Assembly: GCA_017654855.1 (NCBI GenBank)
Contig: CM030337.1
Span: forward strand, 2,294,001 to 2,358,000
DNA from: Podospora anserina
Taxonomy: Eukaryota
Direction: 5' to 3'
DNA length: 64,000 nt
Shown here: positions 52,717 to 58,224 of the stretch, piece by piece
How the letters are laid out: the number at the start of each line of letters is the position of its first letter
Position numbering within the stretch: the stretch's first letter is position 1
Position numbers and translations under genes: made by a program
Notes under the pieces: generated by a model
What the model was told of the DNA's origin: nothing
What the model saw: only the letters and a program-made list of their open reading frames with translations
Databases searched by the model: none

Positions 52717-53603
52717 CTACATGGGCACATAATCCACCACCTCCGTCAACCCAACCATCGCCGGCACCCCCCCTTCCCCCTCCCTCAACGCATAAAACGC
52801 CTTTGTCGACTCAACATCACTAACCTGAATTTCTGGCGGGGCCCTCGAGTAATTCATAACCGACTTTTCGTTCCTCGGCCCCAACTGCACCGACGCCGCC
52901 GCCTCAAACACGGTCCCCGTCTCGGGGTTCACGTCCACCGCGAACTCGTGCCTTAACCCTAAAACGTGCCCTAGCTCGTGGGTGAAGACCTTCCATAGGT
53001 TTGCCTTCCACCGGGGCATCGAAAAGACGGGGTTGTAGACGAGCATCATGTTGAGGTCGTTGGCGTTGGGGAAGAAGGCTGAGGCGAGGGTGCCGCCGCT
53101 GTCGCCGCCGTGGCAGAGGGCGAAGGTGGCGTCTTTGGGGTCGGTGACCCATTCGAAGGTTACGCCGATGGAGAGGTCGTTCCACTTTTGGCAGGCGAGG
53201 TTTAGGTGGGTTGCTGCGTAGGAGGCGTCGGAAGGGGTTTTGAAGCCGGAGGTTAGGGCGACCCTGACAGGGGGTTAGTATACTTGGTTTTGAGGAGGGG
53301 GAAAATCAAAGGGAAGGGGGGTGCATACCATCTGATGACTGACCCAGGTGCCCATCGCGGGCACTCCTTTTCGAGACCGACCATGATGTTGTGGGGTGCA
53401 CCGGGTCCGCGGAAAGGCCTGGGGATGGGCTGCTGGGTTATGCAGTGGGGGAAGAAGTCATCCTCGGGGGAGGTGTCGTCTCTGGGTAGGGAGGGGATCT
53501 TGTCTGAAGGGGAGACAGTGTCGAGGGCATGTTCGCCGAGGGCATCGATAACTTGACCGATGATGATCTCCTTTGTGGAGGGTTCCGAGGTTGGGGTAGC
53601 CAT
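52717..53603 (-). CDS. Metzincin (matrixin-like) zinc metalloprotease, 273 aa, no signal peptide (exons 53603-53329, 53263-52717)
   Basis: HELGHVLGLRHE (HExxHxxGxxH), Met-turn SVMNY, TLASAFFP, PRW, and an N-terminal CITQ (possible cysteine switch). N-terminus is hydrophilic. Confidence 0.9.
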
Positions 53604-54856
53604 GTTTGGTGTTGGGGACGTGCCGCACCAACTTGGGGGTAGGAGATCCAGGCTGAGTTGGTGATGAAGGGTGGTAAAGGAGGGTTGGTGAAATATGAGT
53701 GTCGGTAAAAACTTTAGACTGAATGGTTTGGCTGATGGTGAGGCAAAAGGGAAGATCAGATGATGGTATCTAGGAGCGGCTTTATAATAGAAACAGTTGG
53801 TCCCCAGCTTCACTGTCACAAGTTGATCAGGCGTAGCTAGCTGCCTGCGTGTGAGCGGGGTGATCTATGAGAATTCCTGGGTAGGAGAGGGAGAAAACCC
53901 CATAAGTCTCAAGCCGCATGTTGAGCGAGACAGGGGTGTGTAACACAACCCCTGAATGTGTACTAGTGCGGTGCTTGACAACAGCTGGAACAAGCAGCAA
54001 AAGCCTATAGCAAACCTCAAAGAACGCCATACAGCTAATTATTGGCCAACACCTATACGGTGGTGTAAAGTCTGCGCAGTTGTATCCTCTTTATTGACGC
54101 AGTTCCTGAGGTTCTAGAACATCTGCCATGAGAGAGATACACCGGACCACATACTCCGCTCAGCCAGCCGCAGCCCTACAAGGCGGTGATCTGACCAAAT
54201 ATGGACTCAAGCTCCAACTAATTAGGCTTAGCATCGATTTCTGGAAAAGTTGGGATGCACCCCGTGCTGCTCAGCAGGAGAGGGGTAGATGGGATCCGAG
54301 TTGCAATCCGAGCACTCAGACGGCCCCAAACAAACAGCCGCAACATGCTCAATCCAATAGTTGCCATGGGTAGGAAACAGAGGTGAAACTATCTTTGCAG
54401 CCACAAGATACCTTGGTGAGCCCTGGTAGGTCGTGAGACTGTTTAGGTGTGCTGGTATATTGCATACACTTTACTCAGTGTCCAATATCCAGATTCAGCC
54501 AGGCCCAACAAGCTGTCACTATTCCTGTTTAGATACCACATCGAGCGATGTGATAGCTATGTGATTGAACTCGGGTTCCATCACCATGCTTCAATCTTGT
54601 TCCTGAAGACGCCCAGTTTTGCATGGGGATGCACCATGCCTGAGAGCAATTGCGTGTGGACTTTGGACCTTGGTACAAGCTTTTGGATTGATAGCTATCA
54701 GTCGGCTTTGCAAGAGATCCATGTGGATGGCTCCATGCTATCTCCCATGAAAAGGTTATAAAGAAGCAGTGTCCCCTTGGTTCTCTCGTCCAAGTAACCA
54801 TAGCAGAACACATTGCCAACAACACCTCTTTCACTCACAAGGAAAACACCCCCATC

Positions 54857-56298
54857 ATGACCACCGAATTTCAGGAACTGTGAGTTATCTCAGCCATCCA
54901 ATCATTTGTTGCCGGTCACGGAGCTAACAGTGCAACCAGCACCGTGGAGACCCTCGGTCACGAGCCCATTGGATGGGACTACGACCACGAGAACGACCCC
55001 AATGCCCCACCCGACATCGAAGCAGCGCTGGAGAAACTTCAGCCAGACCATGGCCATAACGACTACTCCCAGCTGGTCGCCATTCCTGTCTCTGAGGAAG
55101 AGATCGAAGCCGCTTCCAAGATTGACTATGTCAAGTGGAAACAGGAGCGCGCAACGAAACCACACAAGGGTGAGTGTTGTTATGATCGATAAACAGACCC
55201 ACAAACCTTTGGCTGACTTTCTCTTCAGACGGCGGTTTCGAGTATGCCGAGCATAGCTACCTCGGTGATTCCCTAACCTTGGCTTGGAACGACGGGCAGT
55301 CCTACGTTTCCAAGAACAAGCCCTTCACCCTCCCGAACGGACTCGAGGTGACATATGGTCAGATCAACGGACTGGCTGGAGACTTCTACGGCACTGTCAA
55401 CCCCATCAGCGACGGCAGGGACTTGCAGGACCAGCGCCAGCGTTTCCTGCGAGCCTGGTACTGGCTTGCCGTGGACAGGACTCGCAACCCAGCCGAGGCG
55501 CAGAAGATTCTCACCACACTCTCGACTGAAGTCGACATGGTGCAGGCCGCACTCGACAAGGGCCAGGATCCGTCGACTGTCTACCCAAAGATTCCGGACG
55601 TCAACGTTCAGCTACAGCTCTACACCATCGCTCGTCCTGACGAATGCCCCAGCTATCTTGGCCTGGCCAAGATCAACTGGGACCACTTCGGCGCCGACGC
55701 CCGCACTGCTTACAACGCCTGTCACTCCATCGCCCTGCAAGTCGCCGCCAGTGGGAACCTCGAGCTGGCCTACGCCATGAACGCCTTCGGCGACCACTTC
55801 CTCCAGGACTCCTTCGCCGCCGGCCACATGCGCACCCCGAGACGCAAGCTCCACGACAGTGTTGGCGCTGCTGATCTATGCGCCAAGTACATGCACGATG
55901 AAGACAACGCGATCGGTCTCTCTGTCAAGAGCCCCATTGGCAGGGCCTGGCACACCTTTGGTGACAAGAAGCTGCTTGACAAGGAAGATATTGCCAACAA
56001 AAACGAGGCTTGGAACGCGGTGCGCGCATCCGCTGATGAGATTTACACTGCTTGGAAGACAAAGACCGTGCCCGAATATCCGAAGTATGTTGCCTGGAAC
56101 TATGCCCCGATTCTGAGCGAGGTTTTTAGCATTGTTGCGCCTCTCTTCACGCCGGATGGTCAGCGACGGGTCGATATAAGGAAGCGATGTCAGGCCAAGT
56201 ATACCTACAAGTATTGGTATTGGTCGACTGCGGCTGACTGCGCGCTGAGTGGGCTGTGGAAGTATCCGATTAAGCCTACGGCGGATTGCAAGATCTGA
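54857..56298 (+). CDS. Zinc-dependent phospholipase C (Legionella PlcA/B/C / Pseudomonas fluorescens PC-PLC family), 440 aa (exons 54857-54879, 54940-55169, 55229-56298)
   Basis: FEYAEH..LGD, TYGQINGLAGDFYG..PIS, YLGLAKINWDHF, NAFGDHFLQDSFAAGHMRTPR, MHDEDN..GL, W..FGD. Splice phases are consistent. Confidence 0.88.
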
Positions 56299-56737
56299 TC
56301 ATTTTCACGTGCATGTGATGAGAGGCCTGTGGTAGGGGTGAGACCACCAGGAAACCTCGTTGTTGAAACGGGTTCTTCCAAAGCAGTCAACCCCCATATC
56401 ACCAATTGCACGTGTTGGATGGATCGGGCCACCATACTGTTCTCGCTTTGGTGCCTGGGTCTTGGGCTTTGAGAGATGGAAGTATGTTCAGAATGCAATT
56501 ATTTCATATTACATCTTCAAACCCCTTCTTCCCTTCATGTGCAACGAAGATCAGGCTTTTCTGGATGTGCTGCAATGAGGGCCAGGTGGGGGTCTTCCCA
56601 TGTGTGATGCAGATCCTAGCCAGGCTGTCATAACAAGCCAAACAGAGAAATACATGAAAGAAAGGCTGTCCGAATTCCATTGTGCTAGCTACCTAGGTAA
56701 TTAATGTCCTCATGTTGCGAAGGGTGGAGTCCCCCAG

Positions 56738-58224
56738 CTATAGTTTTGCTAGATTCGGTTTCGAAAGTCTTGAGTTGCCTCCTAATGAGTTTGATCTTGG
56801 CCCAGTATCTCCCTTGGCTCTCCTGGCGTTTCTGACCTGTTCCCGTCGTTCAAGCTCCTCTGTTTCTTTCTGCTCCTCCGTCCTTTCTGGGACATGTTGC
56901 GTGCCCTTCTCATAATCAATCTTGTGTCGTTGGATCCTGAACGCGCGGTACCCAGTGGAAGGATAAAGACCTTCTTTGTTCACCGTTGGCTCTACAATTG
57001 GCACAGCCATGTCGAGAACCTTTTGTTTGAGGGCAGCCGAGTTGAATGGTATGGGCAATTTCCTGCCGCCTTCATTCGACCGGGTCATGAGAAATGAAGC
57101 AATGGATCCGGTAACCAGCGGAGCAGCTGATATCGATATTAGCATTCTTCGCTGGACGGGCATATCATGATTGCGGCACCTACCAAATGAAGTCCCCTGG
57201 TCGAATTCCTTTCCTCCCCCTTGTACGTCTTTGAGCCTCGGAACCGGGACATCACATCCAGGAGCATAAACATCGATGCCTAGAAGAAGAAGACCTGTTA
57301 GACCTTGCCCGTTAAATATGAATCTGGAACACCTTACCTGCGCCGTAATAGAAGTGGCGGCAGTTGAACCCCTTATCGTAACCTCCAACCATAAGAACAC
57401 CTGGATGCATGGCAGGCAATCCAAGGCCGTCGATCTTCCTCAGGCTCTCATTCAGAGCATCTCCTGCCTTCTTATTAGTCGCTTTCTTTATCTTCTCATT
57501 CCCCTTGCTCTCCTCGTTGGCCTCCTTCATTTGGGCAACCTGCAAACTCAGCGACTCCACATGTCCCAAATATCTGCTTCGCATTTCTGGTGTTATTTCG
57601 ATTCCCTTTTCATTTCCCGCGGCGGCTACAATCAGAATCCCAGCCTCGAGCACCTTGTCGATCGTTTTGTAACAAGAAAAAAGAGCATTCACTTGCGACG
57701 AGGCAACAGCCCGAACTCCCACGCCGAAGGAACAATTGATGAGTGCAGGCTGTCCCTGGTGGTGCCTTTGGCGATGCTTCATGACGACCTGTAGCATCCA
57801 GTCCAATTCTTCCGCAGTGGTTCCCCGCCTCAATACGTAGATCTTTGCCTTGGGTGCTGTATTCTTGATGATACTCAACACGATATTGCCGTGGAAATCG
57901 CTTGACGGCCTGTCGAGCCGAGGTTCAGGCCCATGTAGCAATTCGATCCCATCAAAACCGGGCTGACAGTCGGACTACATCGCATGTTAGTCAGTCTGTA
58001 CCTAAGCAGTGCCAGTTTCAATCGCATGTGCGTATTTGAGTATTTACCTGTTGCTTGAGCAAGAATTCGTTCTCGAGGACATATATGACAACACCCTCAC
58101 CATCGGCATTGTCGGCTTTTTGACCTGCCGTGGTCTTGAGGGAAATCGATTGGTAGCCCCACCAATCTTGAAAGGGTTTGGCAGTCGGTTTGACAGCCAA
58201 GATGGTTGTCATCTTGCGATCCAT
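56738..58224 (-). CDS. Atypical subtilisin-like (S8) serine protease, about 432 aa, no signal peptide or prodomain (exons 58224-58048, 57974-57338, 57279-57184, 57126-56738)
   Basis: WGYQSIS, GEGVVIYVLE (Asp site), FHGNIV (His), INCSFG, VAAAGN (oxyanion), IDVYAPG, GTSF|AAPLVTG (Ser). Three canonical introns give one continuous 433-codon frame. Confidence 0.85.

Follow-up and report, generated by a model that had tools for sequence, protein, structure and literature searches.

Where the genes for a protease and a phospholipase stand side by side, the question arises whether the protease switches the phospholipase on. We asked this of a locus in the fungus Podospora anserina, within a window of 64,000 nucleotides (nt), which is the whole stretch of DNA that was analysed (GenBank assembly GCA_017654855.1, contig CM030337.1, positions 2,294,001 to 2,358,000 of the forward strand; positions below are counted from its first letter). 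In this window a gene for a metzincin-type metalloprotease lies head-to-head with a gene for a zinc phospholipase C (PLC)-like protein, and a gene for a subtilase-like protein of the S8 family converges on the latter. An original prediction, made from the letters of the sequence, took all three genes as one protease-gated module. Our analysis points to a conserved cassette of two genes, metzincin and PLC, and not to a three-gene module. That the metzincin activates the PLC is our tentative reading, to which we give somewhat less than an even chance.

The metzincin and the PLC-like protein

The two genes of the cassette and the region between them are as follows.

52717..53603, minus strand: metzincin gene (orthologue of Pa_6_650), ATG at 53603, 273 amino acids, Pfam M10/M12/M57 matches
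53329-53603, minus strand: metzincin exon 1, from reading of the sequence
53264-53328, minus strand: metzincin intron of 65 nt, GT..AG, from reading of the sequence
52717-53263, minus strand: metzincin exon 2, stop included, from reading of the sequence
53604..54856, no strand: divergent intergenic region between metzincin and PLC, 1,253 bp from ATG to ATG
about 53781-53786: TATAAA box for the metzincin, from reading of the intergenic region
about 54757-54762: TATAAA box for the PLC, from reading of the intergenic region, 95 nt upstream of the PLC ATG
54857..56298, plus strand: PLC-like gene (orthologue of Pa_6_640), ATG at 54857, 440 amino acids
54857-54879, 54940-55169 and 55229-56298, plus strand: PLC exons 1, 2 and 3 (stop in exon 3), separated by two introns

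The metzincin gene product carries HELGHVLGLRHE. Its splice agrees with annotated Podospora proteins of 273 amino acids, and exon 2 is letter-for-letter that of the annotated proteins of P. pseudoanserina and P. comata (n=2). The homologue search returned a Podospora protein with 100% identity. RNA-derived contigs from three public runs skipped PLC intron 2, and one contig of 1,548 nt, running from 56678 to 58413, skipped all three introns of the S8-like gene, whereas a DNA run with the same species label held the stretch unspliced. This difference indicates that the former runs are spliced RNA and that all three genes are transcribed. Transcript contigs of the metzincin were found at 52902-53092, 53475-53712 and 53555-53761; the unspliced ones run from the coding region to 53761 and end about 25 nt downstream of the metzincin TATAAA box. 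Metzincin and PLC were both covered by spliced or 5' untranslated region contigs within the same runs. PLC exon 1 with intron 1 (54857-54939) and the metzincin intron lie outside this coverage, and the models there were built from sequence signals and annotated orthologues. We accepted the PLC start because of the TATAAA box 95 nt upstream and because the N-terminus agrees with that of 9 of 11 close orthologues and of annotated Podospora proteins at 97.5-98% identity.

No hydrophobic N-terminal stretch was seen in the metzincin, the PLC or the S8-like protein, either by eye or in a crude hydropathy scan of the supported models, and the metzincin and PLC families are almost throughout without leaders. 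The original prediction of three intact, spliced genes without hydrophobic leaders, two of them head-to-head at about 1.25 kb, is borne out by the gene models, the RNA-derived contigs and the measured 1,253 bp.

The metzincin matched 230 homologues, of which 120 were listed. The zinc motif HExxHxxGxxHE was intact in 45 of 45 aligned metzincins, and its longer form HELGHVxGLRHE and the Met-turn SVMxY (SVMNY in the window) were invariant in the same 45. Pfam matches to M12, M57 and M10 were above cut-offs yet overlapped, so that the assignment is safe at clan level only. The metzincin model, with a predicted local distance difference test (pLDDT) value of 83.3, gave 159 PDB matches at E<=1e-3 with Foldseek; the top matches were the matrix metalloproteinases (MMPs) MMP-13 and MMP-3, serralysin PrtC and karilysin, and several pro-MMPs were also found. 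With zinc motif, Met-turn and an MMP/serralysin-like fold all present, the predicted metzincin identity holds.

Each of the 45 sequences has the conserved, non-hydrophobic N-terminus of the metzincin with its STKEIL-type motif, which makes the absence of a leader a trait of the family. A Cys invariant in all 45 lies in the N-terminal segment, about 130 residues before the zinc site, within P-x-C-I-T-Q-x-P-I/V-P. The cysteine-switch motif of matrixins (M10A) is PRCGxPD; literally, this motif is absent from the metzincin, whose invariant Cys stands in a different conserved motif. By analogy, a cysteine-switch-like latency of the metzincin is plausible.

The PLC was without a match in Pfam, NCBIfam or PDB sequences, and Pfam and NCBIfam gave nothing for a bacterial homologue either. 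PF00882 matched neither the PLC exon at E<=0.1 nor 45 relatives at E<=1, and a 50-sequence profile of the family, run against PDB sequences, retrieved no PLC at E<=10. Het-C (PF07217) was likewise without a match in 45 family members at E<=1 and in a bacterial member at E<=0.1. Relatives at E<=0.001 numbered 582 among 2,571 scored candidates, from Ascomycota and Basidiomycota; 120 of them were listed. Several database sources label the fungal relatives 'phosphatidylcholine-hydrolyzing phospholipase C'. A scan of bacterial genomes found 438 loci that encode a relative. The best 80 of these 438 showed 36-41% identity and came nearly all from Pseudomonas (P. fluorescens is L119 and L137), with mostly residues 3-333 (about 330) aligned at E values of 1e-58 to 2e-66 relative to the candidates. 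The family looked no different in metagenome contigs. The nearest Atlas clusters were a bacterial hypothetical one (0.95), an Ascomycota 'Phospholipase C family' (0.95) and one automatically named 'Dot/Icm T4SS effector family protein' (0.91).

By homology, the PLC is a member of the Pseudomonas/Legionella-type zinc metallophospholipase C family. The literature links this bacterial group, with the PC-PLC of P. fluorescens, to PlcA, PlcB and PlcC of Legionella: according to PMC6617341, Legionella PlcB is 38% identical to a putative phospholipase of P. fluorescens, and the group reaches eukaryotes. Judging from its title, the paper of Aurass et al. (2013, J Biol Chem 288:11080) has already reported the PLC family in fungi, and in a virulence context.

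For the fold we used the AlphaFold model (pLDDT 83.6) of the orthologue from Triangularia setosa, which is 86% identical to the window PLC exon. In a full scan of 48,161 chains the best match was alpha-toxin (1olp; Z 7.3, root-mean-square deviation 3.5, 146 residues aligned), and B. cereus PLC (1ah7, Z 6.7) and Listeria PlcB (8cqm, Z 6.6) also matched, together with the S1/P1-type nucleases 8qjl (Z 6.3), 3w52 (Z 5.9) and 5fb9 (Z 5.5). The next match after this set was unrelated, at Z 3.9. Foldseek found no significant PDB match for the model (E about 1). The Z values are modest for a helical protein, and we call the fold because of the clean gap in Z and because the six best matches belong to one superfamily. 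Thirteen His, Asp and Glu residues do not vary among 18 fungal and bacterial sequences: E7, H8, D51, D151, H152, H165, D188, H189, D193, H199, H222, E224 and D225. The window PLC holds all 13 of them. We take their order and spacing to recall the nine-ligand tri-zinc site of the zinc PLC (Zn-PLC)/P1 nuclease superfamily. Our reading is that the protein is probably a catalytically competent zinc phospholipase C, of a family distinct from PF00882 with the same predicted fold. The label 'Zn-PLC' in the original prediction is therefore apt as regards the fold and the conserved ligand set, and needs correction as regards kind: the protein is not of the classical PlcB/PF00882 kind and has no profile match.

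An S1/P1 nuclease identity was considered and rejected. PF02265 gave no Pfam match for the PLC exon or its relatives, and structural Z values of 5.5-6.3 are no better than those of the PLCs. The fold alone is compatible with either activity; homology to the bacterial PLC family favours that of a PLC.

The PLC starts with an N-terminal extension of about 87 residues, after which the catalytic domain begins at FEYAEH. In the structural alignment the first model residue is number 88, the Phe of FEYAEH, which is paired with chain residue 1 of alpha-toxin. Where the original prediction had a pro-part, the PLC carries an extension that ends where this alignment puts residue 1 of the mature toxin. 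In the T. setosa model, extension residues 51-80 average pLDDT 74-89 and linker residues 82-89 fall below 50; the eight residues preceding the Phe are the only low-confidence stretch between two well-predicted parts. Gly or Ser stands directly ahead of the Phe in each of 11 close orthologues, and the extension is strongly conserved inside the clade of PLCs that are linked to a metzincin.

Several other features of the termini of PLC relatives were observed. The annotated N-terminus of the Triangularia verruculosa protein (P0003) is leader-like and departs from those of most of its ten fellow close orthologues. The start seems to have been called within the stretch that is intron 1 in the window, although a real alternative first exon is possible. 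Three PLC paralogues on one contig of 81,879 bases (P0102, P0117 and P0118) carry F-G-R-V-V-V-P-V-P in the extension, and a shorter form of this motif recurs in many unlinked fungal PLC relatives. Most Pseudomonas homologues have a leaderless extension of 65-73 residues with the typical start M-S-G-L-H/Q. They occur in a form of about 434 amino acids and one of about 545 amino acids, the longer having a C-terminal extension, and they lie in a conserved neighbourhood of metabolic and transport genes (bacterial subset of L024-L079; L081-L160).

Linkage of the pair and its neighbours

The original prediction proposed recurrent linkage in other genomes as a check. Metzincin and PLC of the same organism share a contig in at least 27 further cases among the matches listed and the metagenome loci. 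'Same contig' here means equal-sized contigs for proteins of the same named organism, plus locus tags. The cases span Sordariomycetes, Dothideomycetes and Lecanoromycetes as well as metagenome contigs, and the pair is arranged divergently or in tandem. The two genes bear consecutive locus tags in six of the 27 cases, as follows.

Ascochyta lentis: 008962/008963
Colletotrichum sp. SAR11_59: 003323/003324
Xylographa pallens: 004597/004598
P. bellae-mahoneyi: 600640/600650
P. pseudopauciseta: 0006120/0006130
P. pseudopauciseta: 0094750/0094760

For another 7 of the 27 the contig measures 4.0-49 kb (T. setosa, Fusarium napiforme, Melanomma pulvis-pyrius, C. cereale, C. somersetense, one JGI metagenome contig and the locus L047), and 14 of the 27 share only a larger contig. 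P. pseudopauciseta has two copies of the cassette, on contigs of 9.04 Mb and 4.35 Mb, and both copies retain both genes (P0246/P0257 and P0251/P0270), suggesting that the pair was duplicated as a unit; the PLC copy on the contig of chromosome-1 size is 93% identical to the window PLC. At L047, where the PLC has only 39% identity with that of the window, the two genes stand in tandem instead of diverging, so that the linkage survives rearrangement. P. pseudoanserina has at least the metzincin twice (P0121 and P0252).

When 33 PLCs were placed in a maximum-likelihood tree, those linked to a metzincin fell into one clade with support of 99/99. A same-contig metzincin accompanied 21 of the 24 rows inside this clade and none of the 9 rows outside it. 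The three remaining rows in the clade are those of F. oxysporum, Orbilia javanica and Colletotrichum sp. SAR11_240, and no metzincin of these strains is among the 120 listed. Members of the linked clade are 72-88% identical across classes, the branches are short, and the tree broadly follows taxonomy. The pair looks like an old, slowly evolving and patchily retained one rather than a recently transferred one.

Between the PLC exon and the proteins annotated in P. bellae-mahoneyi and P. pseudopauciseta, identity is 97.5-98%. Annotations of the metzincin exist for six named species of the Podospora anserina complex, and annotations of the PLC for P. bellae-mahoneyi, P. pseudopauciseta and a record on the contig of PODANS_6_650, which argues that the pair is not strain-specific. 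The 'accessory region' of the original prediction is right in that the pair occurs patchily across fungi; it does not extend to the Podospora complex, several species of which have the pair annotated. Older annotations of P. anserina S mat+ are shortened: P0260 is a PLC of 253 amino acids from an internal Met, and P0250 is a partial metzincin of 181 amino acids. This may be why the pair went unnoticed in the reference strain.

The third gene of the proposed module has the following structure.

56738..58224, minus strand: S8-like gene, ATG at 58224, 432 amino acids, four exons and three introns
58048-58224, 57337-57974, 57184-57278 and 56738-57126, minus strand: S8-like exons 1-4, gene model

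Its stop lies 439 bp from that of the PLC, and the two genes converge, as had been predicted. Against Pfam S8 the window exon scores 23.1 bits, and relatives score 30-52 bits. One longer relative was found, and among 1.84 billion representative sequences the family has 5, which come from T. verruculosa, Diplogelasinospora grovesii and Bacidia gigantensis, plus two fragments. At the position of the catalytic Asp the window protein has Glu, as do all 3 of the 3 relatives with an N-terminus (P0241, P0242 and P0245; 4 of 4 in all), and in P0242 this Glu aligns with the catalytic Asp of a solved S8 protease. The His (FHGN), the oxyanion Asn and the Ser (GTSFAAP) are in place, giving Glu-His-Ser instead of Asp-His-Ser. 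The conserved Glu suggests a working variant of the triad rather than decay.

The T. verruculosa relative lies on a contig of 479,050 bases, whereas the PLC/metzincin pair of that species lies on one of 251,270 bases. None of 80 metagenome PLC loci had an S8-like match, and the pair-carrying species are mostly without a detectable S8-like relative. The claim that the S8 gene is part of the module fails on these grounds: it is not recurrently linked, its family is tiny, and it has Glu at the catalytic Asp. With the three-gene module rejected, we conclude that the S8-like gene is probably a lineage-restricted neighbour and not a component, which removes a false lead.

Members of the S8-like family are leaderless; a charged segment of about 60 residues is inserted behind the oxyanion Asn, and the C-terminal tail is charged as well. 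A fragment of 68 amino acids, P0243, is 79% identical to part of the S8-like protein; most of the substitutions are Ala>Val, Pro>Leu/Phe, His>Tyr and Arg>Cys, as C-to-T mutation of the kind seen in repeat-induced point mutation would give, and P0243 may be a degraded copy in another genome.

Housekeeping genes occupy the window to 37 kb. They are followed by TPR, P450, UbiA prenyltransferase and alpha/beta-hydrolase genes, and then by a gene for a membrane protein with a fungal-rhodopsin domain, the metzincin/PLC pair, the S8-like gene and an MFS transporter gene. The run of TPR, cytochrome P450, UbiA prenyltransferase and alpha/beta-hydrolase genes at 40975-48761 may be a small secondary-metabolite cluster at the border of housekeeping and variable regions.

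Activation of the PLC and alternative readings

Classical Zn-PLCs and P1 nucleases bind zinc through the free amino group of residue 1 (Trp1), and metzincins such as the MMPs prefer a hydrophobic residue after the cut. A mechanism can be proposed from these properties. The invariant N-terminal Cys may keep the metzincin latent. Once free, the metzincin would cut the flexible Gly/Ser-Phe junction just ahead of FEYAEH, and the cut would release the alpha-amino group of the Phe at the position held by the zinc-ligating Trp1 of the classical enzymes. The PLC, latent until then, would thereby be switched on and hydrolyse membrane phospholipids, either the fungus's own or those of a predator or competitor. 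We infer that the metzincin matures the PLC from the alignment of FEYAEH to residue 1, the low-confidence linker, the Gly or Ser before the Phe in 11 of 11 orthologues and the conserved extension. The junction, a small residue followed by a hydrophobic one, suits metzincin cutting.

Several observations weigh against this activation. Among the bacterial homologues examined, 33 of 34 have 24-90 residues (65-73 in 28 of them) before the FEYAEH-type motif, and no protease-like cluster was recognized by eye among the 11 most frequent neighbour-gene clusters of bacterial homologues. An extension thus occurs without a protease neighbour, and the extension alone does not demand a dedicated protease. 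The glutamates of FEYAEH could replace the amino-terminal ligand, and cleavage would then be unnecessary. Legionella PlcC is reportedly active when produced in E. coli. The PLC extension at L047 is without the motifs of the main linked clade. A metzincin lies beside the PLC at only 1 of 80 metagenome loci, that is, at 1 of about 19 that look fungal and have at least 3 kb of flank by our own sorting, indicating that most fungal members of the family do not stand beside a metzincin. PLC paralogues lie off the metzincin contig in X. pallens, A. thermomutatus, P. fimiseda and Podospora aff. communis PSN243, as do partial PLCs of F. flagelliforme. Conversely, metzincins of Monilinia, Sclerotinia, Penicillium, Trichoderma and others have no PLC of their own species among the 120 PLCs listed, which means that the protease has to have further substrates or functions. 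The two proteins co-diverge only weakly: the Mantel r is 0.38, a value reached in 207 of 5,000 permutations. A complex prediction for the T. setosa metzincin and its PLC scored 0.01, which we counted neither way.

The bacterial extensions without a protease, the unlinked fungal relatives, the activity reported for PlcC and the FEYAEH glutamates are the reasons why we hold activation only tentatively and leave appreciable, if smaller, weight to a reading without it. The two proteins may be independent weapons, that is, leaderless cytoplasmic enzymes of defence or attack, which share a promoter region and are co-regulated without an enzyme-substrate relation; once hyphae are damaged or eaten, they would strike a fungivore, a competitor or a host. 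Such a role would suit the lectin-guided toxin architecture of at least five PLC homologues among the 120 listed (P0032, P0037, P0045, P0052 and P0072, from the Agaricomycetes Schizophyllum, Armillaria and Cubamyces and from one further contig), which are fused at the C-terminus to the fungal fucose-specific lectin domain PF07938. It would also suit the cluster of bacterial relatives automatically named 'Dot/Icm T4SS effector family protein', the reported virulence context, and the occurrence of both families unlinked as well. Leaderless cytoplasmic lectins and lipases are described as fungal anti-nematode defence in PMC10512399 and PMC13324453. Nonetheless, the linkage has been kept over three classes, a duplication and a change of orientation, which is more than co-regulation usually preserves in fungi, and a catalytic domain that starts on residue 1 of the mature classical enzymes fits processing. 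We regard independent action as possible but on the unlikely side.

If the metzincin does activate the PLC, both might act inside the cell as a two-step zymogen cascade, in which a danger or damage signal would free the cysteine-capped metzincin, the pro-PLC would be trimmed, and the cell's own membranes would be destroyed. This narrower proposal seems to us improbable; were it true, the cascade would parallel protease-gated gasdermin death by enzymatic means and would date back far enough to be common to Sordariomycetes, Dothideomycetes and Lecanoromycetes. The death module of three parts, in which the metzincin or the S8 protease would cleave the PLC for immunity or allorecognition in the manner of HET-Q2 and HET-Q1, is the reading to which we give the least credit. 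The three genes are indeed leaderless and transcribed, and cleavage of HET-Q1 by HET-Q2 in Podospora is on record in PMC8851545 and PMC12881547. On the other hand, the S8-like family has 5 representatives, is unlinked elsewhere and carries Glu where the catalytic Asp is expected; the open reading frames scanned in the window included no NLR, HET or other recognition gene; and identity of 97.5-98% between the PLCs of Podospora species is conservation and not het-locus polymorphism, so that by its sequence the PLC does not look like an allorecognition locus. It is also quite improbable that the proteins are exported after all, through a missed leader exon or an unconventional route, and act outside like Listeria Mpl/PlcB or the secreted Zn-PLCs. 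By eye, 4 of 113 Met-starting PLC homologues (P0003, P0041, P0047 and P0087) have a convincing leader-like N-terminus, and P0105 is similar. PMC6617341 describes Legionella PlcA as a twin-arginine translocation (Tat) substrate exported via the type II system, most confirmed substrates of which have a typical signal sequence. The window PLC, in contrast, begins as do 9 of 11 orthologues and the annotated Podospora proteins, with a TATAAA box 95 nt upstream of its ATG, and the metzincin has a non-hydrophobic N-terminus in 45 of 45 sequences and a transcript contig that is unspliced to 53761. Slightly less probable again is a housekeeping role in lipid turnover, such as the recovery of phosphate from phosphatidylcholine, the protease being no more than an old syntenic neighbour. 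The slow evolution of the PLC clade (72-88% identity across classes, short branches) and a tree that largely follows taxonomy are as expected of an old, vertically inherited gene, whereas the patchy distribution, the varying numbers of paralogues, the lectin fusions, the duplication of the pair as a unit and the virulence context of the bacterial relatives are not.

Activation of the PLC by the metzincin thus remains our preferred, tentative reading, and the evidence does not decide between self-directed death and attack on others. One outcome would be a new enzymatic cell-death or defence cassette, the other a new class of cytoplasmic anti-predator toxins, kin to bacterial effectors and to lectin-fused mushroom proteins. 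Pa_6_640 and Pa_6_650 form a pair on which it can be tested in a tractable way, in Podospora anserina, whether the protease switches the lipase on, and against whom.

Comparison with known systems

The PLC family and its presence in fungi (2013), the protease-matured Zn-PLC of Listeria and the protease-gated executioners of Podospora are already known. The fungal members of this PLC family have been noted and apparently never studied, and no Pfam or NCBIfam model covers the family. In the literature searched, which did not extend to the content of the 2013 family paper, we found no account in which this PLC family is fixed beside a leaderless metzincin in several fungal classes, and the locus names Pa_6_650 and Pa_6_640 did not occur. 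A 2025 review of fungal regulated cell death does not use the word 'metalloprotease' and names phospholipase only for patatin-like domains.

The window PLC shares with the Pseudomonas/Legionella family its sequence and the set of His, Asp and Glu residues that is invariant across kingdoms. It differs in being fungal and spliced, with a conserved N-terminal extension of its own, and its clade is fixed beside a metzincin, whereas no protease-like neighbour was seen at the bacterial loci examined. With fungal cytoplasmic defence proteins and chimerolectins, as presented in PMC10512399 and PMC13324453, the likeness is that they are leaderless and patchy and that some PLC relatives are fused to a fucose lectin. 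The window PLC is itself without a lectin domain and would be a candidate toxin only. The Tox-HET-C/Het-C domain is predicted to be related to Zn-PLCs and S1-P1 nucleases (Zhang et al. 2012, PMC3482391). It resembles the window family as an all-alpha metal hydrolase of the same predicted superfamily that is used in fungal and bacterial conflict; the window family has no PF07217 match.

Two systems are closest to the proposed mechanism. In Listeria monocytogenes the metalloprotease Mpl, which is thermolysin-like, matures PlcB, a Zn-PLC zymogen. There, as in the window, a co-encoded zinc protease stands beside a zinc PLC with an N-terminal pro-part, a putative one in the window, and PlcB (8cqm, Z 6.6) is among the three best structural matches. 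The window pair differs in that its PLC is of another family, its protease is a metzincin and not thermolysin-like, both proteins are leaderless, and cleavage is a proposal. HET-Q2 and HET-Q1 resemble it in another way, with a leaderless protease gene beside a latent membrane-damaging effector, here a putative one, in the same group of organisms. In the window, the effector would be an enzyme rather than a pore former, and the recurrent protease is a metzincin rather than one of the S8 family.

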